Shown here piece by piece: positions 34,909-64,000 of a stretch of 64,000 bases of DNA. Every line of letters begins with the position of its first letter. Position 1 is the stretch's first letter. This stretch comes from an uncultured delta proteobacterium (GTDB lineage Bacteria > Desulfobacterota > Desulfobacteria > Desulfobacterales > B30-G6): contig CAWGLD010000006.1 in the NCBI GenBank assembly GCA_963823335.1, positions 64,001 through 128,000 of the forward strand, written 5' to 3'. Below the pieces are notes generated by a model. It was not told the DNA's origin. It was given only the letters and a program-made list of their open reading frames with translations, and ran no database searches. The position numbers and the translations under genes were made by a program.

Positions 34909-34930
34909 ATGTGTTATTTTAAGTTACCTC

Positions 34931-37837: not shown

Positions 37838-37897
37838 GTACAAACCTCCAAGGAATTTGAAGTATGTCGCAGCAGGCAAAGAGGAATGCGCTGGCTG

Positions 37898-38779: not shown

Positions 38780-38839
38780 ACGTTCCTCTATACATCACGT
38801 TGGGATAGATTGATATCAGTTAATCCGCAAACTATCATT

Positions 38840-40132: not shown

Positions 40133-40187
40133 TTCACACCTCCTTCATCAAGATCTCGGCACATCTCTTCGGGAGAAATCGCGCAGT

Positions 40188-41954: not shown

Positions 41955-41997
41955 AAATCAGTTTTATCCTATATGTAACAATGGATGATAAAAATAG

Positions 41998-42074
41998 TTT
42001 TAAGTGTTAGGTTTTAAGTTTTAAGTTCCGCTAATGGCTGTTAGCTAACCTAACACCTAAAACTTAAAACCTAA
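41998..42074. repeat. Inverted heptamer array (TTTTAAG/CTTAAAA type); related array at ~46019-46098
   Basis: TTTTAAGTGTTAGGTTTTAAGTTTTAAG...CCTAACACCTAAAACTTAAAACCTAA. Confidence 0.7.
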
Positions 42075-42079
42075 ATCCG

Positions 42080-44176: not shown

Positions 44177-44236
44177 TTATTTTTTGCACCAAACGATTAG
44201 GACATAATTCATGAAACACGCATGTGACGCAATAAC

Positions 44237-44336
44237 GCTGGGATGCCTGGAGGCCTGGAGGCTGGGAAGCTGCTAACAGGCGATAACTCTCAGCCCCCTC
44301 CAACCCTTGTATCACCCTCGGACCCTTGTACCCTCT
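44237..44336 (-). repeat. Composite octamer-array element, copy C
   Basis: Reverse-strand core GGCTGAGAGTTATCGCCTGTTAGCAGC flanked by octamer runs. Confidence 0.65.
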
Positions 44337-45971: not shown

Positions 45972-46104
45972 CTGTTCACCTTTTTTTTGAGCGGTAAGAC
46001 GTAAGCACGAACGTTATTGTTTTAAGTTTTAGGTTTTAAGTTTTAGGAAGACCCAAGCGAGACGATCGTATTTTTCAATGTCAAAACGTAACACCTAAGT
46101 ACCA

Positions 46105-46503
46105 TCATTTATTGCTGATTTCTTTTATTCCTTCAATCATAACGTCAAAAAGGGTTCCACCTGGATAGACGCCTTTGATGCCCATTTGCTCAAGTTTCAC
46201 GATGTCGCGTGCAGGTATGACACCGCCTACCACAACCCCGGTGGACTCAATGCCTTCCTGTGTCATCATCGCGAGAAGCTTTTCACAGATGCTAAGGTGA
46301 GCACCAGACATGATACTGAGCCCAATGATGTCAACGGCTTCCTGAACAGCTGTTCTTACAATCTGCTCAACCGGTTGATGAAGCCCGGTGTATACCACCT
46401 CCATGCCCGCGTCCCGAAGTGCCAGTGCAACAATCTTTGCGCCTCTGTCATGACCATCCAATCCAGGTTTTGCAATGAGTATTTTTATTTTTTTATCGCG
46501 CAT
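46105..46503 (-). CDS. Cobalamin-binding small subunit of the mutase
   Basis: KPGLDGHDRGAK (DxHxxG), SIMSGAH, GGVIP. Confidence 0.95.
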   Translation of the reverse strand: MRDKKIKILIAKPGLDGHDRGAKIVALALRDAGMEVVYTGLHQPVEQIVRTAVQEAVDIIGLSIMSGAHLSICEKLLAMMTQEGIESTGVVVGGVIPARDIVKLEQMGIKGVYPGGTLFDVMIEGIKEISNK

Positions 46504-46556
46504 AAGAAAATCCTTTTATAATTCAGGTTAATCAGACTGTATAGCCTGTCAGTCTA

Positions 46557-46702
46557 TAGAAGCCATCTCAAAAAAAGGGTTTTGGCTCAAGTTCAAGGCG
46601 GGCCCGAACTTCAACCCGCAGGCATACTGAAGTATTCCGAGGAGTTGAAGCAAGGGACCAACACAGAAATTGGATCAAAAAACTTTTTTGAGATAGCTTA
46701 TA
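46557..46702 (+). mobile_element. 146-bp MITE-like element, copy 4 (slightly diverged)
   Basis: Same element; right TIR ends GATAGCTTATA. Confidence 0.88.
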
Positions 46703-46722
46703 GTCTATCCACCTGAGGGGTC

Positions 46723-47421
46723 CTAGCTCAACTCGTCATACGATTCCATTACCGCTTTCTTCCCACGGGCCAAATGCTCCCGGACAAGATTTTCAACACC
46801 GTCCGCATCTCGCTGTCTGATGCGGTCGAGCATATCTTTATGATCCTCATTGCTCATTTTCGCCAGTTTCTCATTTCTCAGTATCAGCTGTCGAAATCGA
46901 TAGATCTGATCGCGCAGATTATTGATCATATGGATCAGCTTCGGGCTTCTGCTCAAGGCATACAATAGATCGTGAAAATCTGTGTTGATGTCGGGAAGCG
47001 CGTCGAGATCTTTATTATCCAAATGTTTCTGATATATCTTGATCTTTTTCTCAAGAGGTTTAAGGTCTGTCGGACGATGCTTTTCGGCAGCTAATCGTGC
47101 TGCATAGCTTTCCAGAACGCTTCGAATACCGAATGTTTCTTCTACGTCCTCCCGGCTGAGCCCCAGCACATTGAAGCCACCCCGGGGAAGTTTTCGTAAA
47201 TAGCCTTCTCTTTCCAGTTTGTGGATAGCTTCTCTGACCGGTGTCCGGCTGATGCCGAGCGTTTCTGCCAAACGACTTTCGATGAGCCTTCCGCCCGGTG
47301 GCACATCACCTTTGATGATCGCGTTTTTCAGATTCTCGAACACATGCTGTCCGAGTGATTTTCGTTGACCGATTTTATCGAGTTCTTCCAATCCTGTGCC
47401 GCTGTCTTTTTGGGAACCCAT
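46723..47421 (-). CDS. GntR-family regulator with FCD domain
   Basis: GISRTPVREAI HTH; N-x-x-FH...EH...H FCD motif. Confidence 0.93.
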   Translation of the reverse strand: MGSQKDSGTGLEELDKIGQRKSLGQHVFENLKNAIIKGDVPPGGRLIESRLAETLGISRTPVREAIHKLEREGYLRKLPRGGFNVLGLSREDVEETFGIRSVLESYAARLAAEKHRPTDLKPLEKKIKIYQKHLDNKDLDALPDINTDFHDLLYALSRSPKLIHMINNLRDQIYRFRQLILRNEKLAKMSNEDHKDMLDRIRQRDADGVENLVREHLARGKKAVMESYDELS

Positions 47422-47470
47422 GGTCTATCCCTGCTGTTTTCAATTGCCCCAACATCTGTTATAACAAGCG

Positions 47471-48661
47471 CTATATGACGCCTCTGCTTTTCAGAGCTTC
47501 GAGAGTTGCTGGATCATACCCCAGTTTCTGACCATAAATTTCATTGTTATGCTCACCAAAGCGGGGTGGAAACGTAAGCTGGCCCCCGCTGTTTTTTATA
47601 AATGAAGTCATGATGGGTGGTGGTGACAACGTAATTTGTTGGGAAGTGATGGGATCTTTGGCGAAGAGCAATTGTTTCTTGACCAATGGGTCTTGAATGA
47701 CATCCGTGATGGACTTGATCTTGCTGACAGGGACCGTTATGGACTGTAAGAGTTCGATAAGATCCTCGGAGGTCATTTCTTGGGTGATGGCATTCATGGC
47801 CTTATTCAAATTTGTAACATCCTGTATTCTACCGGAATTTTTCTCGTATTCTGGTTTGTCAAGGGATTTGAACATTGATTGCTTCACCAGCGTCTTCCAC
47901 TGTCGATCATTTCCGACCGCCATATAAATAAAGCCGTTTTGGGTTTTATAAACCGAAACAGGACAAAAAAATTCATGGGTGTTGCCTCTACGGGTAATTT
48001 TTTTTCCAAAACTGGACGTCAGGGTAATGGGAACCGTTAACCATGAAACAGAAGATTCGAACATGGACAAATCAATACGGCTCCCCTCTCCTGTGAATTG
48101 CTTTTTTAAAAGTGCTTTCATGAGGAGTCCGTAAGCATGTTCGCTGGTTCCCATGTCCGGCAGAGGTATGCCAAGCACCTGCGGATCACCATCCGCTGTC
48201 CCTGTGAGGTCCATCAGTCCTGATCTTGCCTGTAAAATCGGATCATAGGCACCCTCGTTGCTGTCCGGTCCGAATCCGGTGACACCCAGCCAGATGATGT
48301 CTTCCTTGACACTTTTGAGCCGATCGAAATCGATACCCAGTTTCTGATAGTTTTTTGGCAATTGATTGGTGATAAAGATATCGACGTTCAACGCATGAAT
48401 CAACCGATCAAAAATATCCCGTCCATCAGGATCGGCAAGATTCAGAGTTAAAGCCTTCTTTCCGGCATTGATACAAAGGTAATAGGCATTCATACGGTTC
48501 TCACTTAACACATTATCCCCGATCATCCTGTTAGGGTCTCCATAAACAGGGTGCTCCAGACGGATAATATTCATGCCGTCCTGGGCGAGTCGATAGGTAA
48601 GATACGGAACTACCGTGGCCTGTTCCAAGGATAACACCGTTATGGTTTTTAAAAAATCCAT
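47471..48661 (-). CDS. Class III (CaiB/BaiF) CoA transferase
   Basis: GDPNR, NAGKK, GFGPD, YDPILQARSG, GEHN. Confidence 0.92.
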   Translation of the reverse strand: MDFLKTITVLSLEQATVVPYLTYRLAQDGMNIIRLEHPVYGDPNRMIGDNVLSENRMNAYYLCINAGKKALTLNLADPDGRDIFDRLIHALNVDIFITNQLPKNYQKLGIDFDRLKSVKEDIIWLGVTGFGPDSNEGAYDPILQARSGLMDLTGTADGDPQVLGIPLPDMGTSEHAYGLLMKALLKKQFTGEGSRIDLSMFESSVSWLTVPITLTSSFGKKITRRGNTHEFFCPVSVYKTQNGFIYMAVGNDRQWKTLVKQSMFKSLDKPEYEKNSGRIQDVTNLNKAMNAITQEMTSEDLIELLQSITVPVSKIKSITDVIQDPLVKKQLLFAKDPITSQQITLSPPPIMTSFIKNSGGQLTFPPRFGEHNNEIYGQKLGYDPATLEALKSRGVI

Positions 48662-48744: not shown

Positions 48745-48761
48745 TTGTATACTGTATACAA
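48745..48761. promoter_or_regulatory. GntR-type operator palindrome in a divergent promoter
   Basis: TTGTATAC-T-GTATACAA next to a reverse-strand TTGACA; same motif at 57897. Confidence 0.75.
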
Positions 48762-48943
48762 GAAACTATTGTCAAGAATTGTTTGTGATGATATGAATGC
48801 TTTCTTGTATTGACTTTAAATTTAAGTGTACAGTAGGTGAGATTGAAGATTCCTTACAGCAAGCCACGGGGAATGCGCTCGCTGTTTCGGTTCACTGTTC
48901 GGTTCAGTAAATTTATCATCTCAAACGCAAGGAGGTTCATGTA

Positions 48944-49156
48944 ATGGCTGATGTTAATGCTCCCATGCCCGGAAAAATCTGCGAAGTAAAAGTCAGTCCT
49001 GGGGATACCGTTATAGAAGATCAGGAAGTTTTGGTTCTCGAAGCAATGAAAATGGAAATGCCGATTGTCGCAACGGCCGCCGGCACGGTTAAATCCGTCA
49101 ACTGTAGTGAAGGGGATGCGGTACAGGGTGGCGATGTCCTTATGGTCATTGATTGA
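48944..49156 (+). CDS. Stand-alone biotin carboxyl carrier protein (70 aa)
   Basis: APMPG, LEAMKME biotinylation motif. Confidence 0.94.
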   Translation: MADVNAPMPGKICEVKVSPGDTVIEDQEVLVLEAMKMEMPIVATAAGTVKSVNCSEGDAVQGGDVLMVID

Positions 49157-49218
49157 TTTCGTGACAGGCATTTTTTTCCGGTTATACGAGTTGGGGTTTA
49201 TAGCGAAAGGGGGCCGGC

Positions 49219-50781
49219 ATGTCCGACCAGACCACACATAAAAGTGAGCTGAAACGCCTAGCGGCTCTCACGGAAAGGGCTGAACTGGGGGGCGGTGTTA
49301 AAACTATCGATAAACGTCATGCCCAGGGAAAGCTTACTGCCAGAGAACGCCTGACTCTTTTATTCGACCCTCATTCATTCGTGGAAATGAATCAACTTGC
49401 CGAGAGCCAGGCCGTTGATTTCGGCATGCAGGAAAAAAAGGTTCCCGGCGACGGTGTCGTCATCGGCTATGGTAACATTGATGAGCGGCTCGTTTTTGCC
49501 TATGCCCAGGATGCCACGGTGCTGGGAGGATCGGTTGGAACCGTTCACGGCCAGAAAATATGCCGTATCATGGATGAAGCTTTGAAGGTCAAGGCACCCA
49601 TCGTGGGGCTTTTCGATTCCGGAGGCGGCAGAATCCATGAGGGCTTTTTCGCATCCAAGGGTGTGGCCGGTATGTTTTACCGCAATACAGCGGCATCAGG
49701 TGTCATCCCCCAGATCTCTGCCATGATGGGACCCTGTGCCGGCGTATCGGTCTACTCCCCTGCCCTGACAGACTTCATTATCATGGTGGAGGGTACCAGC
49801 CAGATGGCCATTACCGGTCCGGGAGTGATAAAATCCGTTACCGGTGAGGATGTGACCCTGGAAGAGCTGGGTGGCGCAAAGGTGCACAGCGAAATAACCG
49901 GCCAGGCTCATCTTGTTGTCAATACCGACCAAGACTGCATTCAGTCAATTCGCAATCTCCTGGCCTATCTCCCCTCAAACAATGAAGCATCTCCACCCCT
50001 TGTAGAATCGAATGAAGACCCCTTTCGCTCGGATCCATCTTTGGAAGATATTGTTCCTGCAGATTTCAGAAAGGCATACGATATGCGAAAGGTCATTACA
50101 CGCGTGGTGGACCAGGAGACCTTCCACGAACTGCTTCCCAGATATGCAAAAAGCATCATCATCGGATTTGCGCGAATGGATGGGCAGACCATCGGCATTG
50201 TCGCTAACCAGCCTATTTATCTTGCAGGATGTCTGGATGTCAACAGCTCGGACAAGGCCGCCAGATTCATTCGATTCTGTGATGCCTTCAATATCCCCTT
50301 GATCAACCTTGTGGATGTGCCCGGATATTTTCCAGGTGTCAAACAGGAGTACGCCGGTATCATCCGGCATGGCGCCAAAATGCTGTATGCCTATGCCGAG
50401 GCAACCGTTCCCAAAATCACCCTGGCCTTGAGAAAGGAATACGGAGGCGCCGTCATGGCCATGTGCTGCGTAGGAATGGGTGTGGACCAGATGCTGGCCT
50501 GGCCGATTGCCAAACTGGTTGTCCTGGACACCACTACGGCCGTGAACCTGATCTTTCGAAAAGAAATCCAATCTGCCGAGGATCCTGACGAATTCAGACA
50601 GCGCATGATCAAGGCCTATGACCAGAAGTATTCAAATCCTTTTCATGCGGCTTCCAACATGCTCGTGGATGCGATCATCGAACCAAGCCAGACACGACCT
50701 GAGCTAATCAAAGCCCTGCGAATGCTTAAAACAAAAAAACGTCCCGGACCTTTCAGACGACATGGGAATATACCACTATGA
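49219..50781 (+). CDS. Acyl-CoA carboxyltransferase/decarboxylase (PccB/MmdA family)
   Basis: GKLTARER, DSGGGRI, YSPALTDF, DVPGYFPG. Confidence 0.92.
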   Translation: MSDQTTHKSELKRLAALTERAELGGGVKTIDKRHAQGKLTARERLTLLFDPHSFVEMNQLAESQAVDFGMQEKKVPGDGVVIGYGNIDERLVFAYAQDATVLGGSVGTVHGQKICRIMDEALKVKAPIVGLFDSGGGRIHEGFFASKGVAGMFYRNTAASGVIPQISAMMGPCAGVSVYSPALTDFIIMVEGTSQMAITGPGVIKSVTGEDVTLEELGGAKVHSEITGQAHLVVNTDQDCIQSIRNLLAYLPSNNEASPPLVESNEDPFRSDPSLEDIVPADFRKAYDMRKVITRVVDQETFHELLPRYAKSIIIGFARMDGQTIGIVANQPIYLAGCLDVNSSDKAARFIRFCDAFNIPLINLVDVPGYFPGVKQEYAGIIRHGAKMLYAYAEATVPKITLALRKEYGGAVMAMCCVGMGVDQMLAWPIAKLVVLDTTTAVNLIFRKEIQSAEDPDEFRQRMIKAYDQKYSNPFHAASNMLVDAIIEPSQTRPELIKALRMLKTKKRPGPFRRHGNIPL

Positions 50782-50815
50782 TATTGATCGGCTCCTTTGG
50801 GGCAAATCAATATTA

Positions 50816-50897
50816 AAGGTTCAAGGGGCCAAGGATTCGAGGGTTCGAGGGTGGCTGAGGGCGATCAGCTGACAGCAGCATCCTCGCCTCCCAGCAT
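50816..50897 (+). repeat. Composite octamer-array element, copy D
   Basis: Core GGCTGAGGGCGATCAGCTGACAGCAGC flanked by octamer runs. Confidence 0.7.
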
Positions 50898-50967
50898 ACA
50901 AGGGATCAAGATACTGATTTTACTCGTATGTCTATGAAAAAAAACCAATCGAAACAGGGAGAATATC

Positions 50968-52116
50968 ATGGACTTTACCCTCTCCAAGGAACATAAGGAT
51001 ATCCAGAAAGCAGCCAGAGAATTTGCCGTGGGTGAATTTACCCATGTGGCACGTGAATTCGATTTGAATGAAACCTTTCCGCAAAAGATCCTGGACAAAG
51101 CCCGTAAGCTGGATCTTATCGGTCTGTTCATCCCGGAGGCATACGGCGGACCGGGTCTGGGTTTCCTGGAGCATGCATTGGTGCTGGAAGAATTCTGGAA
51201 AATTGATCCTGGTATCGGTCAGCAGCTCTGTTCAGTTTCGTTTGGTGCCGAAGAGCTGCTCCTGTTTGGTACAGAAGAACAGAAAAAAACATTTCTCAAT
51301 CCGATTTTCAGCGGCAAGGCCATTATGGGATTTGCCATTACCGAACCGGATGCCGGGAGCGACACGGCCGCTGTTGCAACAACCGCTGTAAGAGACGGTG
51401 ACGACTATATTATCAACGGCAGCAAGATCATGATCGGTAATGGCACGGTGGGAACATTTATGCTGGTATTTTGTCTGACCAATCCGGATGAGAAATCAAA
51501 GACAGCCCGGCACAGCGTTATCATTGTCGAAACCGATCGACAGGGGTATAAAGCCGATAAAATGGACGGCAAGATGGGACTCAGATGTTCTGACACAGCC
51601 GCTGTCTACTTCAACAATGTGCGGGTACCCAAAGAAAATCTGCTGGGTAGGGAAGGCCATGGCTTTATCCAACTGATGCATTTCTTCGATCGCTCCAGAG
51701 CCTACGTGGCCGCCCACGGCCTTGGCTTGGCACAGGGCGCCTTGGATCAGGCCGTCAAACACGTCAGAGGCAGAAAACAGTTCGGGCGCCCTTTGGGTGC
51801 TTTCCAGGCGACCCAGTTCAAGATTGCCGAAATGGCAACCAAGATCGAAGCCGCCAGGAACATGGTCTACAAATCCGCCTGGCTTCTGGACAACGGCATG
51901 GCTGATACCAAACTCACCGCCATGGCCAAACTGTATGCCTGTCATGTGGCTGTGACGGTTGTTGACGAAGCTCTTCAATTGCACGGCGGATACGGGTATT
52001 TCAACGATTATGACATCGAACGATTCTACCGGGCCGCCAAGGTACTCGAAATATATGAAGGCACCAAAGAGGTTGAAAAGATAATTATTTCTCGGGAAAT
52101 TTTGGGGAAATTATAG
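50968..52116 (+). CDS. Acyl-CoA dehydrogenase
   Basis: FAITEPDAGSD, RKQFG, QLHGGYG, IYEGT. Confidence 0.95.
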   Translation: MDFTLSKEHKDIQKAAREFAVGEFTHVAREFDLNETFPQKILDKARKLDLIGLFIPEAYGGPGLGFLEHALVLEEFWKIDPGIGQQLCSVSFGAEELLLFGTEEQKKTFLNPIFSGKAIMGFAITEPDAGSDTAAVATTAVRDGDDYIINGSKIMIGNGTVGTFMLVFCLTNPDEKSKTARHSVIIVETDRQGYKADKMDGKMGLRCSDTAAVYFNNVRVPKENLLGREGHGFIQLMHFFDRSRAYVAAHGLGLAQGALDQAVKHVRGRKQFGRPLGAFQATQFKIAEMATKIEAARNMVYKSAWLLDNGMADTKLTAMAKLYACHVAVTVVDEALQLHGGYGYFNDYDIERFYRAAKVLEIYEGTKEVEKIIISREILGKL

Positions 52117-52599
52117 ATCTCCGTAGCTTATGGCGGGGCACGCGTCAATTGAAGGACCTCGCAGCAAGCTGCGAAGATGGATGATTCTATTGTTTATCAC
52201 TTCGTTTTTATCCTGAGTTACAGATAAATTTCTTTAGGGTCGACGGTGTCACGAAAATTGCTCTCAAAAAACATCATTTTCTGATGTTTTTTTTTGATTA
52301 AATCGTCAATTATGGAATTGAAATATATCATAGGTTATATTCATTATTAATATAGTACAGCATGTTAGGTTGTCATATACATATGACTACCTGCTAATAT
52401 TGAAAATAGAGTTATGACGCTAACCAGGGCACGTTAACTATAAGCCTGCAAATGTTACTTTCATCAAACACTGGCAAGAACAAGCAAGATAAGACTTGCC
52501 ATCTTACAGATATAAACGTAAACGGGGGTAAAAAAATTGTCTGTTTACCGAAAATATTGATGCGCCACGGCGAAACTTCAGGTTCAAGGATTTATAAGG

Positions 52600-54598: not shown

Positions 54599-56179
54599 CT
54601 AGAGTTCGACCAGCTTGATATTCTCCACCAGTGGTAAAGCCTCTATTTCTTTCTGGACCTTCTCTGGAATCGGCGTGTCTGTGGCCAGAAAAATAATATT
54701 GGTGCTTCCTTCAGCGCTTTCTCCCACATTCATGCGACTGATATTGATCCCCCTTTCTCCAAGCAACAGTGTTATGCTGCCGAATGCACCAGGTTTATTT
54801 TTATTGCGGATATATGCGAAATGGCCTTTGGGTTCCATGGTGAGATGGAAGTCGTCGATTTTGACAATGGCGGCTCGTTTCTTGCCGAATATCGTACCCG
54901 ATATATCACAGGTGCCGTCGGTGGTCAGCACCCGAACCGTTATCAGATTGATATACTCATCCGGGTCAGATGTCGTGGTTTCAGAGATCTTGATGCCTCT
55001 TTCCTGTGCAAGTACATTCGCGTTCACGTAATTGACGTCATCTTTGACCATGGGGGTCAGCAGACCCTTCAAAACACTGGTGGTAATCGGCGTAAGCGTC
55101 ATCCCCTGAAAATCACCGGCGTATTCTACTCCCACCTCTTTTACAGCACCTTTGCACAATTGTGGCACCAGACATCCCATACGGTCACCAAGATTCAGAT
55201 AGGGTCCTATCTTGTTTAAAAGCTCACCTGCAACCGATGGCGCATTGACGGCATTTGTAATTGTTCCTGTTTTCAGATAATCAATAATCTGTCTGGCCAC
55301 CGCCACCGCTACATTGGTCTGAGCCTCCTTTGTTGAAGCACCCAGATGAGGGGTACATATAACATTTTCGTTTTCAACCAGCGTACAAGTTCCTGGAGGT
55401 TCGGTTTCAAAGACATCCAGTGCTGCTCCGCCAACTTTTCCCGAAGCAATGGCATCATTGAGAGCCTTTTCATTGACAATTCCACCCCTGGCACAGTTGA
55501 TAATCATGACCCCGTCTTTCATTTGCTCAAAGGCTTTTTTGTCTAGTAAGCCTGTGGTCTCTTTAATTTTTGGGACATGGATGGTGATGTAGTCGGCTCT
55601 TCGATAGAGCTCCTCCAGCGAGACGCTTTCAAAACCGTCTTTCCGAATCTGCTCCGGTGATACAAAGGGATCATATACGATGACCTGCATTTTAAGTCCC
55701 TGTGCCCTGTCTGCGACAATGGAACCGATTTTTCCATATCCCACCACCCCCAGGACCTTGTTAAAAACCTCCCTGCCCTGCAGTAGCTTTTTATCCCATT
55801 TTCCCGCCTTTAAAGAACTGGTTCCTCTGGGAATATTTCTTGTCAGGGCCATCATCATTGAAATGGCGTGCTCTGCCGTTGTGATCACGTTTCCGGTGGG
55901 TGTGTTCATGACAATGATGCCATGTTTCGTGGCGGCGGGAATATCCACATTGTCCAAACCGATACCTGCTCTGCCAACAACTTTGAGTTTCTTGGCCGCG
56001 AGCATTAAATCCGCAGTAACCCTGGTGGCACTTCGAATAACAAGGGCATGGTATTCACCGATGATTTTTCGGAGCTCTTCCGGCGACAAACCCGTCTTCA
56101 CATCTACCGTTATACCTTCTTCTTCCTGGAACATACTGATCCCGATATCACCCAACTGATCACTCACCAGAACTTTCAT
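54599..56179 (-). CDS. serA: D-3-phosphoglycerate dehydrogenase (with ASB/ACT domains)
   Basis: GRAGIGLDN, TTAEH, GYGKIG, NCARG, TPHLGAST. Confidence 0.95.
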   Translation of the reverse strand: MKVLVSDQLGDIGISMFQEEEGITVDVKTGLSPEELRKIIGEYHALVIRSATRVTADLMLAAKKLKVVGRAGIGLDNVDIPAATKHGIIVMNTPTGNVITTAEHAISMMMALTRNIPRGTSSLKAGKWDKKLLQGREVFNKVLGVVGYGKIGSIVADRAQGLKMQVIVYDPFVSPEQIRKDGFESVSLEELYRRADYITIHVPKIKETTGLLDKKAFEQMKDGVMIINCARGGIVNEKALNDAIASGKVGGAALDVFETEPPGTCTLVENENVICTPHLGASTKEAQTNVAVAVARQIIDYLKTGTITNAVNAPSVAGELLNKIGPYLNLGDRMGCLVPQLCKGAVKEVGVEYAGDFQGMTLTPITTSVLKGLLTPMVKDDVNYVNANVLAQERGIKISETTTSDPDEYINLITVRVLTTDGTCDISGTIFGKKRAAIVKIDDFHLTMEPKGHFAYIRNKNKPGAFGSITLLLGERGINISRMNVGESAEGSTNIIFLATDTPIPEKVQKEIEALPLVENIKLVEL

Positions 56180-56272
56180 TTTTATTCCTCCGTTTTTCAG
56201 TGTCTCCGCGATTTGGGTAGTCTTCTATCTTAATTTGTATTGCTTGTAAAGCACCCAAACCTGCTTGCTGCG

Positions 56273-56321
56273 AAAAAGAAAACGCTCCCCGTATGCTATA
56301 TACGATGAGCGTTTTCTTTTT
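56273..56321. terminator. Hairpin with A/T tails between trpB2 and serA
   Basis: AAAAAGAAAACGCTC...GAGCGTTTTCTTTTT. Confidence 0.65.
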
Positions 56322-56337
56322 GTTACAGCAATTTAAG

Positions 56338-56396
56338 AACCTCGCAGCATGCGAAGCATCACCGAACGGCAGAACCTGCGAGGAATGTGATCGCTG
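56338..56396 (+). repeat. REP-like palindromic repeat, long form
   Basis: AACCTCGCAGCATGCG...AACCTGCGAGGAAT; matches 4804-4851. Confidence 0.7.
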
Positions 56397-56413
56397 TTGT
56401 TCTTCAACCCCTG

Positions 56414-57787
56414 TTAGCGGCTTTTCAAGAGCTCTGGTTTTGGGTGTCCAGTCAGCACTTTTTGAGATTCTGCGATGGCCTCTTCGTCGAGAACAATATC
56501 TTCTAATTGACCGGATAGATACTTTTCATATGCGCCAAGATCGATCAAGCCATGGCCACTCCAGTTAAACAGAATCACCTTTTCTTTGCCCTCTTCCTTG
56601 GCCTTCCTGGCTTCATCCACCACGCATGCCAAGGCATGGTTGGTTTCGGGTGCCGGGATCACGCCTTCCGTACGTGCCAGGAGAATTCCGGCCTTATAGG
56701 TGGCAAGCTGGCCCACAGCTTTGGCTTCCATGATGCCCTCAGATACCAACTGACTGACAGTTGGCGCCATACCGTGATACCTCAACCCGCCTGCATGAAG
56801 TGGTGGGGGAACAAAGGTATGTCCCAGACTGTGCATGGGAAGCAGGGGGGTCATTTTAGCATAATCGCCATGATCATAGGCAAAGGGGGCCCTGGTCAAG
56901 GTGGGACATGCTTCGGGTTCCACCGGGTATATGGCAACGTCTTTGCCGTTGATCTTGTCATGGGCGAATGGAAATGCAAGACCGGCGAAATTGCTCCCGC
57001 CACCTGCGCATCCTATAACAATATCCGGATATTCGTTGACTTTTTCCAATTGTTTCTTGGCCTCGAGCCCGATGATGGTCTGGTGAAGCATCACATGGTT
57101 CAATACGCTTCCTAAAGAATACCGTGTCTCACCGGTTTGATCCGTGACGGCCGCCTCGACAGCTTCACTGATGGCGATTCCAAGACTGCCCGGCGTGTCC
57201 GGGTTCATCTCCAGAACACCTCTTCCGGCTTGCGTTTCCGTGCTGGGACTGGCAATACATTGGGCGCCCCAGGTGGACATCATTGCTTTGCGATACGGTT
57301 TTTGGTCGAAACTGATCCGCACCATGAAAACCTTGCACTCGAGTCCGAACTGGGAACAGGCGAAAGCCAGGGCACTTCCCCACTGACCGGCGCCGGTTTC
57401 GGTGGTCAAGCGCTTGATACCGAACTCTTTATTGTAATAGGCCTGTGCGACTGCCGTATTTGGTTTATGACTGCCCGGAGGACTGACGCCTTCATATTTG
57501 TAGTAGATGCGTGCCGGTGTATCGAGGGCTTTTTCCAATTCATAGGCTCGAATCAAGGGGGATGGACGCCAGATTCTCAGGACTCTCAAAACTTCTTCAG
57601 GAATATCGATCCAGCGTTCCGTGCTGACCTCCTGTTCAATGAGGTTCATTGGGAAAACCGGTGCCAGCATATCCGGCGTTATGGGACCATCTGGTCCCAA
57701 AGGAGGGTTCATTTTGATATCCGCAAGGATATTGTACCACTGCCGCGGCATCTCATCTTCTGATAACAGTATTTTTTTAGTTTCCAT
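56414..57787 (-). CDS. trpB2: TrpB2-type stand-alone tryptophan synthase beta
   Basis: [15 protein letters not shown]-Lys, [31 protein letters not shown]; no trpA nearby. Confidence 0.93.
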
Positions 57788-57896
57788 TGTCTCCTCCTTC
57801 CTGATAGGTATTTAAATGGTTTGATGGATTGCGCTACAGGGTAAGATTTGGTGTAACACGCTGAAAAAGATTCATTTTTTAACTTGACTTCAAACA

Positions 57897-57911
57897 TGTA
57901 TACAGTATACA
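57897..57911. promoter_or_regulatory. GntR-type operator palindrome, second copy
   Basis: TGTATAC-A-GTATACA flanked by inverted CTTGACT/AGTCAAG (divergent -35-like hexamers). Confidence 0.75.
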
Positions 57912-57976
57912 GATTTTAGTCAAGAGAATAATGATACGTATCCAATTTTTTAACATAAATAAAGAAGGAAATCTCC

Positions 57977-59998
57977 ATGAAATCACGCATTGAACTGTAC
58001 CCCACCGCCCACAACCCTCTCTTGATCAAACCGGATCGTGGATTGCCCACCGCCGCTGCCGTTATTGGGGCCGGTACCATTGGTCCCGATATTGGCTATT
58101 TTCTAAAAAGCGCCCTGCCAAATATGCCCCTTACCCTTGTGGATGTCGATGACAAACCCCTAAAGGCGGCAGAAAAACGATTGGCCGCTTATGCGGCAAA
58201 GGCTGTCGAGCGAAGAAAAATGCGACCGGAACAGGCAAAAACCGTTTTGAAAGACATCCGCTACACCACGGATTACCAGCAGCTCAAAAATTGTGATCTG
58301 GTCATCGAAGCGGCAACGGAAAACATACCTTTGAAACAGAAAATCTTTGCTCAAGTTGAAAATATTGTCAGTCAAGACACCATCATTACATCCAACACCA
58401 GCTCCATCCCGGCCGACCGTTTATTCATGAAAATGAAACACCCGGAACGAACCTCGGTCACCCATTTTTTTGCGCCTGCATGGCGGAGTCTTCCCGTGGA
58501 AGTTATCTCATGGCCTGGCGCCTCTCAGAAAACCATTGATTATCTTTTCTGGTTTCTGGCAAAAACCGGCAAAGCACCCATCGTGACGGACAATGCCATC
58601 TGTTTTGTCCTGGATCGTATTTTCGACAACTGGTGCAATGAATCCGCGTTCCTCCTGAGCCAGGCGACGGCCAGTCAAATTGACAGGGTGGCCGAAGAAT
58701 TTGTTTTTGCCGGCCCTTTTTTTGTACTGAACATGGCCAACGGCAATCCCATTATTATTGAAACAAATACTCTGCAGATGGAGGAAGGAGATCATTACAA
58801 ACCAGCACCGATACTTCATTCCGTCGATCGCTGGGCAACCCATCGTCCCGGTAGCGGGCCTGAGATCCCTGAAAATCTTCACACCGCCATTCGAGATCGA
58901 CTGCTGGGCATTCTGTTTTCTCAGTCATTTGATATTATCGACAGGGGCATCGGCACTCTGGCAGATCTCAATTTCGGTTGCCAGATTGCCCTGGGATTTA
59001 AAGAAGGCCCCCTTGATGTTATGAAACGGCTGGGAAAGACCGAAGTACATCGCATTATGACACGTTTTCAAGAAGACCGCCCAGGATTTCCTGAGGCTGC
59101 CCAGCCATTTGAAACCTATCAATCGTTTCATCGATACATTCTGACGGACGACATGGACGGTGTAAAGATTATCACCATCCGTCGTCCCCAGGCAATGAAT
59201 GCCCTCAATGACGATGTAACCGAAGAAATATGCCAGGTGCTGGCATCCAGCGAAAAGGACCCTGCCGTAAAAGGGTTTGTCATTACAGGGTTCGGTAGCA
59301 ACGCTTTCTCAGCGGGTGCCGACATCGGCAAGTTTCCGACCATGCTGGGAGATAAGGATGCATCTATGCAGTATGCCAGGGATTGCGCTAAAGTCCAGTG
59401 CTACATGGATCAAATGAACAAACCCGTGGTCGCAGCCCTCAATGGCTTGGCCATGGGAGGTGGACTGGAGGTCGCCATTCGGTGTCATGGTATTGTTTCG
59501 GTTGAAAAGGCAGTTCTGCAATTTCCGGAAATCACGTTGGGTATTCTGCCCGGTATTGGCGGTTGTGTGGTGCCTTACCGTAAGTGGCCCCAGGGGGCAG
59601 CGCTCTTTCATGAAATGATTCTGTTTGGAAAGCCGGTCCCGGCGACAACAGCCGCTGAGATGGGAATCATCAATGGTCTTGTCAAGGATCCGGCGGATCT
59701 GATAGCTGCGGCTATCAAAGAGGTTCAGCGGCTCCAAAACAACATACCGAGAATCAGTAACGCCGCCGTTGACATCCCTGAGATATCGATTCCGGAATCG
59801 CCTGCTGCCGGCAAACAGCTCCTGAGTAAGGAAGCCGTTTCCATTACCGCTGATACCATTCGAAAGGCATCGGCTGCCGACGATCTCGAAACAGCACTGG
59901 AGATAGGGTATGAGGGTTTCGGCGATATCGCCTGCTCTGCTGCCGCCAAAGAAGGAATATCCGCATTTCTACAAAAACGAAAACCGAACTTCAAATAA
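57977..59998 (+). CDS. 3-hydroxyacyl-CoA dehydrogenase / enoyl-CoA hydratase fusion
   Basis: GAGTIG, SNTSS, HFFAP; C-terminal FSAGADI, GGGLE, FPEITLG. Confidence 0.92.
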   Translation: MKSRIELYPTAHNPLLIKPDRGLPTAAAVIGAGTIGPDIGYFLKSALPNMPLTLVDVDDKPLKAAEKRLAAYAAKAVERRKMRPEQAKTVLKDIRYTTDYQQLKNCDLVIEAATENIPLKQKIFAQVENIVSQDTIITSNTSSIPADRLFMKMKHPERTSVTHFFAPAWRSLPVEVISWPGASQKTIDYLFWFLAKTGKAPIVTDNAICFVLDRIFDNWCNESAFLLSQATASQIDRVAEEFVFAGPFFVLNMANGNPIIIETNTLQMEEGDHYKPAPILHSVDRWATHRPGSGPEIPENLHTAIRDRLLGILFSQSFDIIDRGIGTLADLNFGCQIALGFKEGPLDVMKRLGKTEVHRIMTRFQEDRPGFPEAAQPFETYQSFHRYILTDDMDGVKIITIRRPQAMNALNDDVTEEICQVLASSEKDPAVKGFVITGFGSNAFSAGADIGKFPTMLGDKDASMQYARDCAKVQCYMDQMNKPVVAALNGLAMGGGLEVAIRCHGIVSVEKAVLQFPEITLGILPGIGGCVVPYRKWPQGAALFHEMILFGKPVPATTAAEMGIINGLVKDPADLIAAAIKEVQRLQNNIPRISNAAVDIPEISIPESPAAGKQLLSKEAVSITADTIRKASAADDLETALEIGYEGFGDIACSAAAKEGISAFLQKRKPNFK

Positions 59999-60031
59999 AT
60001 TCGCTACGCGAATTTATTTTCAGGAGGTATA

Positions 60032-61888
60032 ATGAAAGAAGATTTTTTTCTCGGTAACGGAGCCATCGCGCTGGGCCTTCTGGAAGCCGGATGCCAGGTA
60101 CTCACATCTTATCCGGGAACACCTAGTTCGGAGATACTGCCCGAAGCGGTCCGTTTGATAAAATCTGAAAAACTCAATACCTATGTGGAATGGTCTACCA
60201 ATGAGAAAGTGGCCCTGGACAATGCATACGCTGCCGCCATTAGCGGCAAACGATCGGCATGTATCATGAAGCAGGTAGGTCTGAACGTTGCAGCAGATTC
60301 GCTGATGAGTGCGGCTTATCTGGGAACCGTGGGGGGGCTGGTCATTATCTCCTGTGACGATCCCGGCCCGCATTCATCTCAGACGGAGCAGGATACACGC
60401 CTGATGGCCCGCTTGGCGAAAGTCCCGGTACTGGATCCGTCTAACCCGCAGGAGGCTCGGGAGATGGTTATAACTGCCTTCGAACTTTCAGAAAAATACA
60501 GACTGCCGGTTATTCTGAGACCGGCTATCCGGGTATGTCATGCCAGGCAAAACCTGACCTGGGACAGCCTCCAGGCCAACCATCGCCCAGCTGAATTTAA
60601 AAAGGATCCCTTGCGTTGGGCCGCCACGCCAAAATATCGATTTCTGCTCCACAAAGAGCTCAATAACAAGTTGAAAAAAATTGCACAAGAATTCGACGAT
60701 CTAAAGCCCTACAACACACATGATCTGAAGCCTGGAATGCATTTCCCTTTGGGTATTATTGCCGGCGGGGTTCCAAGTTCCGTTGTTAAAGACATTTTAA
60801 ATGACTATGGGCGCACAGATATCCCTATACTGAAAATCGGGGCGCCCTACCCCTTTCCCGACAGCCTCGCCATGACATTTTTACAGGCATGCGACAGGGT
60901 TCTGGTGATTGAAGAAACCGATACGCTGATTGAATACTGTCTGCGGAATCGCGCAAAGGTTTTAGGCCGTTTCACCAGTCATGTCCCGTCTGAAGGTGAG
61001 CTGGTGCCCGAGAAAGTTGAAGGAGTTCTGGAAGCGGTTTTGGCAGAACTCGATCTGCCAAAACTGAACAGCGATTCTCTGGATACTGCCCAGGCTCTCG
61101 TAAACAGTCTTGAACTGCCCATACGAAAACCGACCCTCTGTTCAGGGTGTATGCACCGGTCAGTCTTTTACAGCATTCGCAAGTCCCGTCCCAAGGCAAT
61201 TTTTACCTCCGATATCGGATGTTATACACTGGGTCTCAATCTGGGAAGCGTGGACACGGTTCTGGACATGGGCGCCTCCATCACCATGGCTTCAGGGTTT
61301 TACCATGCCTATGCACAGGATGGTAAGCAGCAACCGATCGTTGCGACCATCGGCGACTCTACCTTTTACCATTCCGGACCTGCCGGCCTGTTGAACGCCG
61401 TCTACAATGATGCCCGATTTGTACTGGTAATTCTGGACAATATGACAACCGCCATGACAGGCATGCAGCCGACCCCATCACTTGGAATACGGGCCGACGG
61501 CAGCAAAGGCAAACAGATACCGCTCGAGAGACTCATAGCAGGATGTGGTATCGACTTCATAGAGGTGATCGACCCCTATGGGCTGAAAGATCTGCACAAA
61601 ACACTCAAGAAAGCGTTTGCCTACGTAAAGGACCCTGATGGTGGTATTGCCGTCGTCATAGCCCGTCATGCTTGCGTCATTGCATACAGGGATCTGGCAA
61701 TCCAAAACAGAAAGGAAGTTACCATAACCGATGAGTGTATTGCGTGCAACCACTGCATAGAACGATTCGAATGTCCAGCCCTTTATCATGACGCCCATAA
61801 CGATAAAACGGCTATCAATCCGGCGCTGTGTATCGGATGCGCCGTCTGCGTTGATGTTTGCCCCAAACAGGCGATTGTGGCTAAATAG
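60032..61888 (+). CDS. iorA: Indolepyruvate:ferredoxin oxidoreductase alpha subunit
   Basis: YPGTPSSEI, NEKVA, MKQVGLNVA, SDIGCY, GDSTF, C-terminal ferredoxin Cys motifs. Confidence 0.93.
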   Translation: MKEDFFLGNGAIALGLLEAGCQVLTSYPGTPSSEILPEAVRLIKSEKLNTYVEWSTNEKVALDNAYAAAISGKRSACIMKQVGLNVAADSLMSAAYLGTVGGLVIISCDDPGPHSSQTEQDTRLMARLAKVPVLDPSNPQEAREMVITAFELSEKYRLPVILRPAIRVCHARQNLTWDSLQANHRPAEFKKDPLRWAATPKYRFLLHKELNNKLKKIAQEFDDLKPYNTHDLKPGMHFPLGIIAGGVPSSVVKDILNDYGRTDIPILKIGAPYPFPDSLAMTFLQACDRVLVIEETDTLIEYCLRNRAKVLGRFTSHVPSEGELVPEKVEGVLEAVLAELDLPKLNSDSLDTAQALVNSLELPIRKPTLCSGCMHRSVFYSIRKSRPKAIFTSDIGCYTLGLNLGSVDTVLDMGASITMASGFYHAYAQDGKQQPIVATIGDSTFYHSGPAGLLNAVYNDARFVLVILDNMTTAMTGMQPTPSLGIRADGSKGKQIPLERLIAGCGIDFIEVIDPYGLKDLHKTLKKAFAYVKDPDGGIAVVIARHACVIAYRDLAIQNRKEVTITDECIACNHCIERFECPALYHDAHNDKTAINPALCIGCAVCVDVCPKQAIVAK

Positions 61889-62001
61889 AGGGTGGTTGAG
61901 GGTTAGAGGGGTTGGAGGGGTTCGGCTTTTGGTTACCCTTACAAGTGGCTCACCAATTACATGAGCCTAAGAATTCAGAAGTCAGAAGTTCGTAAAGCTC
62001 C

Positions 62002-62163
62002 AAATTGTTTTAATGCTGGAAACCGAATGAACATCGAACATCGAACGTCCAACATCGAATTTTGAATTTGAAAAGACGAACTAACAGAAATAATTTGGTA
62101 TTGGTTTTTTGTTTTCATTCAACATTGAACGTTCGATGTTCGATGTTGGACGTTGGACGTTCG
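62002..62163. repeat. Inverted pair of AACATCG heptamer arrays between iorA and iorB
   Basis: Forward array 62029-62067 and inverted array ~62112-62163. Confidence 0.85.
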
Positions 62164-62216
62164 TCTTTATCATGTCATCAGTAATAAATTAAGCATTCAA
62201 AACTGAAGGAGGCTAT

Positions 62217-62786
62217 ATGCCTACCATAAATTTTGTACTCAGCGGCCTGGGTGGCCAGGGCATCCTGTTTATGACCAAAATCATTGCCAATACGGCATTG
62301 CGTAAAGGCTACAATGTCATGGGAGCGGAAACACATGGCATGGCACAGCGAGGAGGCTCTGTCATTTCTCACCTCAGGTTAGGCAATGTCAACAGCAGCC
62401 TTGTCAAAACTGGTTCAGCACAGTTCCTGCTGGCTCTTGAAGAAAATGAAGCCTACCGCAATCTTCCCTTTCTTGCAAAAAACGGACACCTATACAGCGA
62501 CACGGTTTCAGGCGATTTTCCTATGCCGAAGGTCAAACCCTATCTTGATAAAATGGGTATACGATACGATGCCCTGCCGGCCGGCAAAATCGCTCTTGAA
62601 TTAGGTGCGCCTGTGTCCTCCAATCTGGCCATGATTGGCTTTTTTGCCGCATTTCAGGAGGGACCTTTTGCAGCGGATGATTTTCAAGAGACCATCGAGA
62701 GCATCAGTCCGGGACGATTCAAGGATATCAACTTGCGGGTTTTTGAAAAAGGTCTTTCTGCAGGTAATACGGCTAGAGCATTATGA
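62217..62786 (+). CDS. iorB: Indolepyruvate:ferredoxin oxidoreductase beta subunit
   Basis: GLGGQG, ETHGMAQRGGSV. Confidence 0.93.
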   Translation: MPTINFVLSGLGGQGILFMTKIIANTALRKGYNVMGAETHGMAQRGGSVISHLRLGNVNSSLVKTGSAQFLLALEENEAYRNLPFLAKNGHLYSDTVSGDFPMPKVKPYLDKMGIRYDALPAGKIALELGAPVSSNLAMIGFFAAFQEGPFAADDFQETIESISPGRFKDINLRVFEKGLSAGNTARAL

Positions 62787-62808: not shown

Positions 62809-63008
62809 GATGAACGTCCAACATCGAACGCTGAACATCGAATGAAAACGAATAGTAAAGAGCACTCTGTAACAAGATGTGTCGGCGGGCTCAAGCCCCG
62901 TCGATAGGGGAAATGTGCTCGCTGCCGGCGTTCAATACCGACATCTGTTTCTTCATGTTACAAATTTAACATTCGATGTTGGACGTTCGATGTTCAATGT
63001 TCATTCGT
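62809..63008. repeat. Inverted pair of AACATCG heptamer arrays enclosing a REP-like hairpin
   Basis: Forward array 62809-62848, inverted array 62968-63008 overlapping the 3' end of the ligase gene. Confidence 0.8.
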
Positions 63009-64000
63009 AGTTCGGTTTTTCTGACCTTCCCAAGGGCGGTCCGGGGCAGTTCTTTTACGAAAGTTAATTGTTTTGGATGTTTGTAGCGTGCCAACCGTTC
63101 ATGGCAGTACCGCTGAACATCGGCTAATTCAAAGCTGCTTTCATTTTGCGGTATGACAAAGGCATGACCGGTGAATCCCCAGACTGCATCCGGCATGCCC
63201 ACGACGGCGATATCATCGATGCCATCCATTTCCCGTAATATAGCCTCCACTTCGGCAGGGTAAACGTTTTCGCCTCCGGAAATATACATATCGTCGACCC
63301 TGTCCACCAGGTAATAATAACCGTCTTGATCCACATATGCCAGGTCTCCGGTATGGAGATACCCATTTTTAATGGTTGCATCGGTTTGTTCAGGGTCCTG
63401 CCAGTATTCTTTCATCATAATGGATCCCCGAACGACAATTTCACCGATCTCTCCCGGGCTTACCCGACGGCCGCTCCTGTCAAGAATACTGACCTCGGCA
63501 TGGAAGACAGGTCTTCCAACTGTTCCTGGTCTATTCAAGGAAACATCTTCCGACGCCCACAAAAGAATGGATGTTTCTGTTTGACCCATGATCTGGCGGA
63601 ATCCAAATCCACTCGCCTTGCAGGCCTGAAATAACTCTTTGGATGTTTTTTCTCCGCCGCCTGCAATGGTCTTTAAGGACGACACATCCCTGCGTTGCTC
63701 GGGCGGGACATTGAGAAGTGATCGAAAGACCGTTGGCACACCTAAAAATTTGCTTACACGATATTTTTCGATGTCCCTGTAAACGGATACAGCATCAAAT
63801 TTTGTGTGAAGCAGAATGGTTGCGCCTTTGTAAAGGGTCGGTGCTGCCTGGATAAAAAGGCCGCCGGAGTGAAAAAGGGGTAGCACGATCAACATGATAT
63901 CATCAAAGTTGAGTTTGAAGAATATCTCCGCATTCAGGCAGTTAAAAAAAGTTTTTCTGTGGGAGAGCACGGCGCCCTTGGGTGCACCGGTTGTCCCGGA
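62966..64000 (-). CDS. Acyl-CoA synthetase (AMP-binding), 5'-truncated by the window edge
   Basis: SGTTGAPKG at the edge, GQTET, HTGD, SGGENVYPAEVE, LPRTALGK. Confidence 0.92.
   Translation of the reverse strand, partial: SGTTGAPKGAVLSHRKTFFNCLNAEIFFKLNFDDIMLIVLPLFHSGGLFIQAAPTLYKGATILLHTKFDAVSVYRDIEKYRVSKFLGVPTVFRSLLNVPPEQRRDVSSLKTIAGGGEKTSKELFQACKASGFGFRQIMGQTETSILLWASEDVSLNRPGTVGRPVFHAEVSILDRSGRRVSPGEIGEIVVRGSIMMKEYWQDPEQTDATIKNGYLHTGDLAYVDQDGYYYLVDRVDDMYISGGENVYPAEVEAILREMDGIDDIAVVGMPDAVWGFTGHAFVIPQNESSFELADVQRYCHERLARYKHPKQLTFVKELPRTALGKVRKTELRMNIEHRTSNIEC

Follow-up and report, generated by a model that had tools for sequence, protein, structure and literature searches.

A divergent trpB2-iorAB locus beside indoleacetate-type genes in an uncultured delta proteobacterium: a possible route of anaerobic indole catabolism through tryptophan

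Why does a gene for tryptophan (Trp) synthesis share its promoter region with genes for indolepyruvate oxidation? The question is raised by a stretch of 64,000 nucleotides, hereafter the window, from contig CAWGLD010000006.1 (positions 64,001 to 128,000) of an uncultured delta proteobacterium. In the window, serA and trpB2 on the minus strand diverge from three plus-strand genes (57977-62786) for a 3-hydroxyacyl-CoA dehydrogenase/enoyl-CoA hydratase fusion (HADH/ECH) and for the two subunits of indolepyruvate:ferredoxin oxidoreductase (IOR; iorA and iorB), close to an island that resembles the iaa genes of anaerobic indoleacetate (IAA) degradation. The first-pass annotation had read the locus as a route of free indole through Trp to indoleacetyl-CoA. 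Genomic and regulatory evidence supported this reading, and we consider it somewhat more probable than an even chance that the locus acts as a catabolic funnel, in which exogenous indole and serine or phosphoserine would be joined to Trp and then passed through indolepyruvate and indoleacetyl-CoA to the iaa pathway; the direction and size of the flux are what we infer.

Genes and operator of the divergent locus

All five genes were found in the placement given by the first-pass annotation, as judged from open reading frames (ORFs) and from Pfam and NCBIfam models, whose bit scores are given as score/cut-off (Table 1). Compared genomes and loci are labelled G and L, respectively; G000 is the source genome, a 4.37-Mb assembly that is 93.9% complete. 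The window TrpB2 failed the trpB1 model TIGR00263 (149.4/392.45) and aligned over its full length with solved TrpB2 chains (6hul_B, 424 bits, residues 9-424; 4qys_B, 396.8 bits), its GSHK motif with the pyridoxal phosphate lysine matching that of the solved structures. SerA showed the 2-Hacid_dh, PGDH_inter, and ACT domains of Pfam and passed the equivalog model of D-3-phosphoglycerate dehydrogenase (PGDH); the source genome has two full-length PGDH genes, the other being G000:C7:304992-306554 (616.5 bits). The HADH/ECH fusion, which is conserved next to iaa genes across the compared relatives, likely performs beta-oxidation steps on 2-aminocinnamoyl-CoA. IOR of anaerobes oxidises arylpyruvates derived from aromatic amino acids to aryl-acetyl-CoA. 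Among four full-length iorA paralogues of the source genome, the window copy alone exceeded the TIGR03336 cut-off. Adjacency to iorA supports a role of iorB as an IOR subunit, and the surrounding iaa and trpB2 genes make indolepyruvate the predicted substrate of IorAB. Contig C1 of the source genome carries a canonical trpB1-trpA pair; accordingly, TrpB2 is dispensable for de novo Trp synthesis. No match to tryptophanase was obtained in the 93.9%-complete assembly, and hence an internal source of free indole is not evident.

The 189-nt spacer between trpB2 and HADH/ECH carries a perfect palindrome, TGTATACAGTATACA. As the first-pass annotation had noticed, the iaa-like cluster has the same palindrome; this second copy, TGTATACTGTATACA, differs from TGTATACAGTATACA at the centre base only. 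When up to three mismatches were allowed, five matches were obtained, two of them exact, and none of 100 shuffles reached five. With at most one mismatch, the palindrome occurred at just these two sites in the 4.37-Mb assembly, and both are island promoters.

Overlapping, divergent promoter-like elements surround TGTATACAGTATACA: TTGACT (57884-57889), 16 nt, and TATACA (57906-57911) in the rightward direction, and TTGACT (57918-57923), 15 nt, and TATACA (57897-57902) on the minus strand in the leftward direction. The palindrome has the two -10-like hexamers as its outer arms, so that one bound dimer would close both directions of this candidate promoter pair. A consensus promoter/terminator scan, whose counts were near the shuffle expectation, listed neither these operator-overlapping promoters nor the hairpin between trpB2 and serA described below. 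Within the family of the source genome, from which 15 genomes of three genera were sampled, the promoter/palindrome block was conserved in 8 of 10 aligned spacers, and the symmetric TTGACT boxes were kept in two genera. Measured from the palindrome, the HADH/ECH start was at a nearly constant distance and the trpB2 start at one varying from 50 to 273 nt. GntR/FadR-type operators follow a GT..AC palindrome pattern. The regulator of the island carries a GntR helix-turn-helix and an FCD domain, the palindrome reads GTATAC-N-GTATAC, and the two are predicted to pair; a regulator of this type was always present in the iaa islands of relatives.

The terminator-like hairpin between trpB2 and serA that the first-pass annotation had pointed out was also recovered: the 234-nt spacer folds at -83.1 kcal/mol (z = -5.95), and the hairpin is missing from the simple terminator scan because its loop exceeds the limit of the scan. 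RNA-library contigs of two runs end at 56297 and 56322, which is a weak hint of termination only. Here trpB2 may be largely monocistronic, with serA having its own promoter. The island spacers also contain palindromic repeats resembling repetitive extragenic palindromes (REP), at 62026-62168, 62813-62839, 62971-63002, 48859-48894, 52148-52178, and 56338-56357; members lie, among other places, between iorA and iorB and between trpB2 and serA. At these repeats RNA-library contigs are joined or broken, loose ends are many, and the summed depth is very high.

Table 1. Features of the window discussed in the text, with positions counted from its first nucleotide
Feature	Position	Strand	Basis or remark
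iaa-like genes: TRAP transporter, three-subunit molybdenum (Mo) hydroxylase, PaaK-like CoA ligase, hydantoinase-like B and A, B12 mutase, GntR regulator, family III CoA-transferase	31802-48661	-	Pfam, NCBIfam
GntR/FCD-family regulator, candidate palindrome binder	46723-47421	-	Pfam GntR + FCD
Second palindrome copy, TGTATACTGTATACA	48746-48760	.	Between the CoA-transferase/GntR operon and the carboxyltransferase/acyl-CoA dehydrogenase (ACAD) operon
Small biotin-carrier-like ORF, carboxyltransferase, and ACAD	48944-52116	+	Pfam, NCBIfam (carboxyltransferase and ACAD); EAMKM motif (small ORF)
serA, long-form PGDH with ACT domain	54599-56179	-	TIGR01327 641.6/454
Terminator-like hairpin in the trpB2-serA spacer	~56273-56321	-	Stem of ~15 bp between A-run and U-run
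trpB2, stand-alone TrpB2-type tryptophan synthase beta	56414-57787	-	NF009057 716.9/366; TIGR01415 624.7/518.85
Core of overlapping divergent promoters (putative)	57884-57923	.	Read from sequence
15-bp perfect palindrome TGTATAC-N-GTATACA, TGTATACAGTATACA, putative GntR/FCD operator	57897-57911	.	Spans both -10 hexamers
Fused 3-hydroxyacyl-CoA dehydrogenase (N-terminal) and enoyl-CoA hydratase (C-terminal)	57977-59998	+	Pfam 3HCDH_N + ECH
iorA, IOR alpha subunit	60032-61888	+	TIGR03336 658/650.9, marginal pass
REP-like inverted repeat filling the 328-nt iorA-iorB spacer	62026-62168	.	
iorB, gamma-domain subunit of IOR	62217-62786	+	Pfam POR 110 bits
AMP-dependent CoA ligase, cut at the window end	62966-64000	-	Recurs beside the island in other families

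Linkage of trpB2, ior, and iaa genes across genomes

Orthologous TrpB2 was encoded in all 15 family genomes at 86-97% identity. Where the contigs sufficed, the genes for the GntR regulator and CoA-transferase diverged from those for the biotin-carrier-like protein, carboxyltransferase, and ACAD, and serA-trpB2 further along diverged from HADH/ECH-iorA-iorB; SBF and Dus genes were variably present between ACAD and serA, and one genus (G010) was without HADH/ECH. The palindrome with at most two mismatches was found in 11 of the 12 family loci having DNA upstream of trpB2 or HADH/ECH, and the trpB2/serA-ior-iaa linkage held in 11 of 12 informative loci. The exception, G012, had no palindrome, no match to the iaa marker HydA, another neighbour upstream of trpB2, and no HADH/ECH neighbour.

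We then widened the sample to 201 genomes of the order (125 genera), using HydA at 70% identity or more as the marker of iaa genes. HydA orthologues occurred in 41 of these genomes, which, together with synteny, indicates conservation of the iaa set. HydA and trpB2 lay on the same contig in 16 genomes, within 15 kb in 11 of them (six families), 28-47 kb apart in three, and far apart in two. After nine rows too near a contig end were dropped, iorA stood beside trpB2 in 23 of 36 iaa-positive contexts vs 0 of 58 iaa-negative ones, a raw association that should not be read as a probability. Among 60 trpB2 contexts of iaa-negative genomes, the fetched flanks contained iorA in none and serA in two. 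Adjacency of these genes is thus not unique to the source genome, as the linkage recurs in many genomes and more widely than had been anticipated.

Gene order changed between families and the trpB2-ior linkage persisted. The order was HADH/ECH-trpB2-iorA-iorB on a single strand in G193 and G096; trpB2-iorA-iorB next to a second Mo-hydroxylase in G025, G160, and G108; and HADH/ECH diverging from trpB2-orf95-serA-iorA'-iorB' in G159, G024, G199, G207, and G168. In G098, serA-trpB2 diverged from HADH/ECH as in the window, and in still other genomes the palindrome separated trpB2 from serC. The second three-subunit Mo-hydroxylase set, directly beside trpB2 in G108, G025, G160, G032, and G148, was 29-53% identical to the island's own.

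The gene called orf95 above encodes ~95 residues rich in Cys and Trp with a conserved multi-cysteine motif; neither Pfam nor NCBIfam gave a match. Most genomes of the order, whether iaa-positive or -negative, have this gene after trpB2 (for example L044:8714-9001, L045:8770-9057, and L043:10449-10754), and in many loci it lies between trpB2 and iorA. It was absent beside trpB2 in the family of the source genome, the layout of the window being divergent, with an extra serA and without orf95. No remnant was detected by tblastn in the trpB2-serA spacer of the window, and the sole homologue in the source genome was the C-terminal part of a NusB-domain ORF (G000:C1:704770-705456).

The reciprocal search, with the window IorA against one genome per species, gave 79 loci. 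In the class with 65-79% identity (32 loci), trpB2 was present in 23 loci, all among the 25 having at least 2 kb upstream. In 21 of them, trpB2 shared the strand of iorA at a distance of up to 1 kb, usually as trpB2-orf95-iorA-iorB; serA was found in 10 loci and a serC-like gene in eight. Co-directional serC-serA-trpB2-orf95-iorA-iorB strings occurred in Desulfatiglandales and in loci titled 'Deltaproteobacteria' or 'Pseudomonadota' (e.g. L177), with partial or reordered forms in L176 and L178. The class with 50-64% identity (30 loci), mostly of uncultured Betaproteobacteria, had trpB2 in 13, and the betaproteobacterial loci L216 and L221 repeated the divergent layout of the window. An IOR type linked with a PaaK ligase (Syntrophales, Geobacterales, and others) had trpB2 in none of its seven loci. 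The trpB2-ior module was found in Desulfobacterales, Desulfatiglandales, and uncultured Betaproteobacteria.

The palindrome was also examined in five other genomes and had two to six sites per genome, most of them within the iaa island or upstream of trpB2; this supports the view that it marks an iaa regulon including trpB2 in at least five families. The clearest arrangement was that of G042, in which trpB2-orf95 lies 26 kb away from the rest of the island and still carries the palindrome. The site is common to a divergent gene passing the SerC equivalog model (466/443.6), and another copy lies between HADH/ECH and serA-iorA'-iorB'; trpB2, serC, serA, and iorAB therefore all stand behind the island's operator in the family of G042. 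With at most one mismatch, no palindrome was found near trpB2 among the iaa-negative contexts, and matches with two mismatches at L062 (~8 kb away) and L077 were chance-like.

Short, Trp-rich upstream ORFs with W-W or W-x-W preceded trpB2 in 11 of 61 iaa-negative contexts (6 with WWW) and in 5 of 42 iaa-positive ones. Four of the latter five (G015, G055, G127, and G210) precede a trpB2 that is not linked to ior, and the fifth (G168) is a doubtful ORF of 41 codons; a WWW-type leader was found in none of 32 linked trpB2 contexts. An Rfam scan of 54-64 kb of the window gave two sub-threshold, spurious matches to miRNA families on a REP-like hairpin and no T-box or Trp leader. Unlinked trpB2 thus often look controlled by Trp starvation, whereas linked trpB2 appear to carry the catabolic operator instead.

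In a TrpB2 tree of 103 rows, including 20 added iaa-negative genomes, TrpB2 of iaa-positive genomes fell into three clades: that of the window (20 of 22 rows iaa-positive), a second one (15 of 17), and a long-branched pair of G098 and G123. The second clade had consisted of iaa-positive rows only in our initial tree. This was a sampling bias, as wider sampling gave 15 iaa-positive and two iaa-negative rows. The branch of the iaa-linked TrpB2 of G098 (L093) and G123 (L116) has ~1.35 changes per column, with 60-62% identity to that of the window, and could reflect an altered function.

A proposed route and its rivals

We propose that trpB2, the extra serA copy, and HADH/ECH-iorAB would constitute the entry module of an anaerobic, iaa-type indoleacetate island. 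With a putative GntR/FCD-type repressor site over both -10 elements, trpB2 and HADH/ECH-iorAB would be switched on with the rest of the island. SerA and then SerC would provide O-phosphoserine, and TrpB2 would convert this compound (or serine) and exogenous indole to L-tryptophan. A general aminotransferase encoded elsewhere would form indolepyruvate from Trp, and IorAB would convert it to indoleacetyl-CoA, CO2, and reduced ferredoxin. Finally, the Mo-hydroxylase, hydantoinase-like enzyme, CoA-transferase, mutase, decarboxylase/ACAD, and HADH/ECH would lead to 2-aminobenzoyl-CoA and acetyl-CoA.

A stoichiometric, catabolic demand for a C3 donor would account for serA and serC being under common control. 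The strongest discriminator between this route and mere salvage is that serine-pathway genes are co-located and, in G042, co-regulated, an arrangement sensible only for stoichiometric flux. The chances seem evenly balanced that anaerobic indole catabolism opens by making a C-C bond at C3 instead of by hydroxylation. In this reading dedicated SerA and SerC would supply the O-phosphoserine from which TrpB2 takes a C3 unit, IOR would release one of the three carbons as CO2, and the iaa pathway would give back the other two as acetyl-CoA, for rebuilding the co-substrate. Such a co-substrate cycle would be analogous in logic to fumarate addition.

Several observations weigh against the funnel, three of which the first-pass annotation had rightly raised as caveats. 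The hairpin between trpB2 and serA leaves co-regulation of serA unproven in the source genome. No aminotransferase gene lies in the island or anywhere in 46-64 kb of the window, the nearest ones (12700-13788 and 14046-14891) belonging to an unrelated alanine/D-amino-acid operon. Stand-alone trpB2 is indeed common, as TrpB2 occurs in 168 of the 201 genomes and 112 of the 125 genera of the order, mostly unlinked to iaa genes. In addition, iorB scored below every NCBIfam IorB cut-off (best 132.2/238 and 130.1/205.8), and the independent-contrast test gave ~5 pairs on supported branches with a median p of 0.5, the sign test being without power. The window TrpB2, on a short branch of the tree, shares 75-84% identity with unlinked TrpB2, so that the protein itself gives no sign of a changed reaction. 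The cluster serA is the sole PGDH found in G159, G042, G207, and G078, and the pattern of PGDH copies makes the extra serA of the window's family weak evidence. The idea that an extra serA copy is specific to iaa genomes was itself rejected, since there are iaa-negative genomes that likewise have two PGDH copies and several iaa-positive ones that have just one. Estuary RNA libraries contain 26-46% of the sequence words of the stretch searched; when contigs of four runs were mapped, the depth over 17.5 kb was low and flat in all 30 bins (29 in X14), the high bins being repeats. These contigs can neither rank genes nor exclude DNA carry-over, and are silent on induction, strand, and operon structure. 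According to the accessible part of a 2018 review (PMC6221969), the intermediates published for anaerobic indole breakdown are oxindole, isatin, and anthranilate, and not tryptophan.

Among the rivals, Trp homeostasis or salvage survives best, although we regard it as unlikely. Here the island would degrade Trp and IAA through IOR, and TrpB2 and SerA would scavenge trace indole or refill the drained Trp pool at a biosynthetic-scale flux. For such a role Trp-sensing control is expected, whereas the linked trpB2 have no WWW-type leaders and carry the catabolic palindrome. Trace flux needs no co-regulated serA and serC, and to synthesise Trp during its induced breakdown would be futile if the substrate were anything but indole. 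These points must be set against the near-ubiquity of TrpB2 in the order, mostly away from iaa genes, which fits an ancestral role; the lack of divergence of the window TrpB2 from unlinked TrpB2; the status of the cluster serA as the only PGDH, and thus a housekeeping gene, in several families; and the trpB2-orf95 pair, present in all 20 iaa-negative genomes that were sampled and have a distant TrpB2 (orf95 matched in 18).

IOR-type reductive carboxylation of aryl-acetates to aromatic amino acids takes place in anaerobes such as rumen bacteria and Methanococcus. It is conceivable, albeit very improbable here, that IOR runs in this direction: reductive carboxylation of indoleacetyl-CoA would yield indolepyruvate, amination of the latter would yield Trp, and TrpB2 would add Trp made from indole. 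The two enzymes would then work in biosynthesis and draw on environmental indoles. The PaaK-like ligase within the island could indeed make indoleacetyl-CoA for this purpose, but none of 58 iaa-negative contexts had the trpB2-iorAB pair, which ties the pair to the complete catabolic island rather than to just a ligase. The pair is in an operon or under an operator with HADH/ECH and other catabolic genes; moreover, reverse IOR would make serA and serC unnecessary, and a Trp-sensing leader is absent.

Still more doubtful is an inherited neighbourhood, in which an ancestor by chance had trpB2 beside the island and the palindrome serves the HADH/ECH-iorAB side only. The number of independent contrasts is small, with iaa-positive TrpB2 in three clades only, and the palindrome keeps a nearly fixed distance to HADH/ECH and a variable one to trpB2. 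However, the linkage outlasts many rearrangements and spans Desulfobacterales, Desulfatiglandales, and Betaproteobacteria. In G042, G205, and G120 the palindrome lies between trpB2 and serC, with a catabolic gene on neither side, and G012 lacks HydA as well as the palindrome and an adjacent HADH/ECH.

The least credible rival is another nucleophile of TrpB2, such as oxindole, giving 2-oxo-tryptophan and, through IOR, 2-oxindole-3-acetyl-CoA directly (a less likely variant of the C3-addition route); oxindole is a classic anaerobic indole intermediate in the available part of PMC6221969 and five genomes have the second Mo-hydroxylase set directly beside trpB2 (G108, G025, G160, G032, and G148), but the window has a single Mo-hydroxylase set and a TrpB2 without sequence divergence from ordinary TrpB2.

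Indole is among the most abundant aromatic fermentation products of anoxic sediments, guts, and sludge. If the catabolic funnel is true, testable genes are named for oxygen-free indole breakdown, a biosynthetic enzyme has been recruited as a catabolic activating step, and the little-studied iaa pathway is extended to Trp and indole as natural substrates. The route would also explain the retention of TrpB2, a widespread enzyme of debated role, beside serine-pathway genes, and the trpB2-iorAB-iaa signature could serve as a metagenome marker.

The island, its surroundings, and known systems

The enzyme families of the iaa set are co-located in the window, namely the ligase, Mo-hydroxylase, hydantoinase-like A/B, CoA-transferase III, B12 mutase, ACAD, transporter, and regulator; the assignments are at the domain or family level, none passing an equivalog cut-off. 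The small, biotin-carrier-like ORF shows an EAMKM motif, as read from the DNA. This ORF, the carboxyltransferase, and ACAD also occur in the nearest relatives (G108, G025, G151, G148, G098, G160, and G193) at 80-97% identity. In more distant iaa islands, a different ACAD (30-35% identity) is encoded between the genes for the GntR regulator and the CoA-transferase, so that the benzylmalonyl-CoA decarboxylation step may have two solutions among iaa islands. Upstream of the iaa-like genes, at a distance of ~10 kb, are genes for the beta and alpha subunits of an electron-transferring flavoprotein (ETF) and for an HdrD-like CCG/4Fe-4S protein (19517-21674 and 25916-27919). According to the accessible part of PMC8360864, strict anaerobes have dedicated ETF paralogues in their iaa operons.

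Downstream of the window, at G000:C6:144-157 kb (L151:16221-19837 and L152:1313-9318), genes for a short-chain dehydrogenase/reductase (SDR), a thiolase, a DUF35-type protein, and an enoyl-CoA hydratase were observed; the thiolase may be the enzyme missing from the island. A second IOR-like pair, with genes for a PaaK-like ligase and a 2-hydroxyacyl-CoA dehydratase, lies further downstream of this SDR/thiolase group. Within the window, an MttB-family (trimethylamine methyltransferase-like) gene at 28838-30355 on the minus strand forms one frame of 505 residues with a single in-frame TAG at 29372-29374, and a PylS C-terminal domain above the cut-off is encoded at G000:C2:79183-79914. The gene is probably that of a pyrrolysine-containing methyltransferase, not a broken gene. 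A further MttB-like ORF is located at 21879-23273.

As for known systems, Schuhle 2016 is said to list iaa operons of sulfate reducers, and Ebenau-Jehle 2012 reportedly deals with anaerobic indoleacetate degradation of the iaa type. The iaa cluster of Aromatoleum aromaticum and Azoarcus evansii resembles the window, at the family level, in its PaaK-like ligase, Mo-hydroxylase, hydantoinase-like A/B, CoA-transferase III, B12 mutase, ACAD, TRAP transporter, and regulator. The accessible text of PMC8360864 describes this cluster for anaerobic indoleacetate degradation, a pathway via benzylmalonyl-CoA-type intermediates, and iaa operons predicted in sulfate reducers. Unlike the window, the same text contains neither the word 'tryptophan' nor 'indolepyruvate' and presents no entry module of TrpB2, SerA, or IOR. 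In place of the single decarboxylating IaaF, the biotin-carrier-like ORF, carboxyltransferase, and ACAD appear to stand in.

TrpB2 enzymes are known as indole-salvage tryptophan synthases (Hettwer & Sterner 2002 and Busch et al. 2014, as cited in the available part of PMC11917138); their affinity for indole is high, and a dependence on O-phospho-L-serine has been reported (Busch 2014, cited in the same part). By models and structures, the window TrpB2 belongs to the same family, with the canonical TrpA/TrpB1 encoded elsewhere in the genome. Salvage TrpB2 is usually read as biosynthetic and its gene is often under Trp-sensing leaders, whereas the trpB2 of the window is under a putative catabolic operator and beside IOR.

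Like the IOR of anaerobes, the window enzyme has two subunits and would convert indolepyruvate to indoleacetyl-CoA. It differs from the IOR of fermenters, where the CoA ester is turned into free IAA for ATP, in that its product would feed ring degradation. Anaerobic IOR and aromatic amino-acid oxidation are the subject of bioRxiv 10.64898/2026.01.29.702580, as far as its accessible part shows.

No paper linking TrpB2 with indolepyruvate or describing a route of indole via Trp was found in a literature search whose coverage excluded most subscription journals. On anaerobic indole breakdown, the available part of PMC6221969 gives metabolites and names no genes or enzymes. The classical indole route described there, in Desulfobacterium indolicum and consortia, shares with the proposed one its substrate, its kind of habitat, and an anthranilate derivative as the end product. 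The two differ in their first step: in the classical route, as the same part presents it, indole is first hydroxylated at C2, whereas the route proposed here would begin with a C-C bond at C3, formed with a serine-derived C3 unit.

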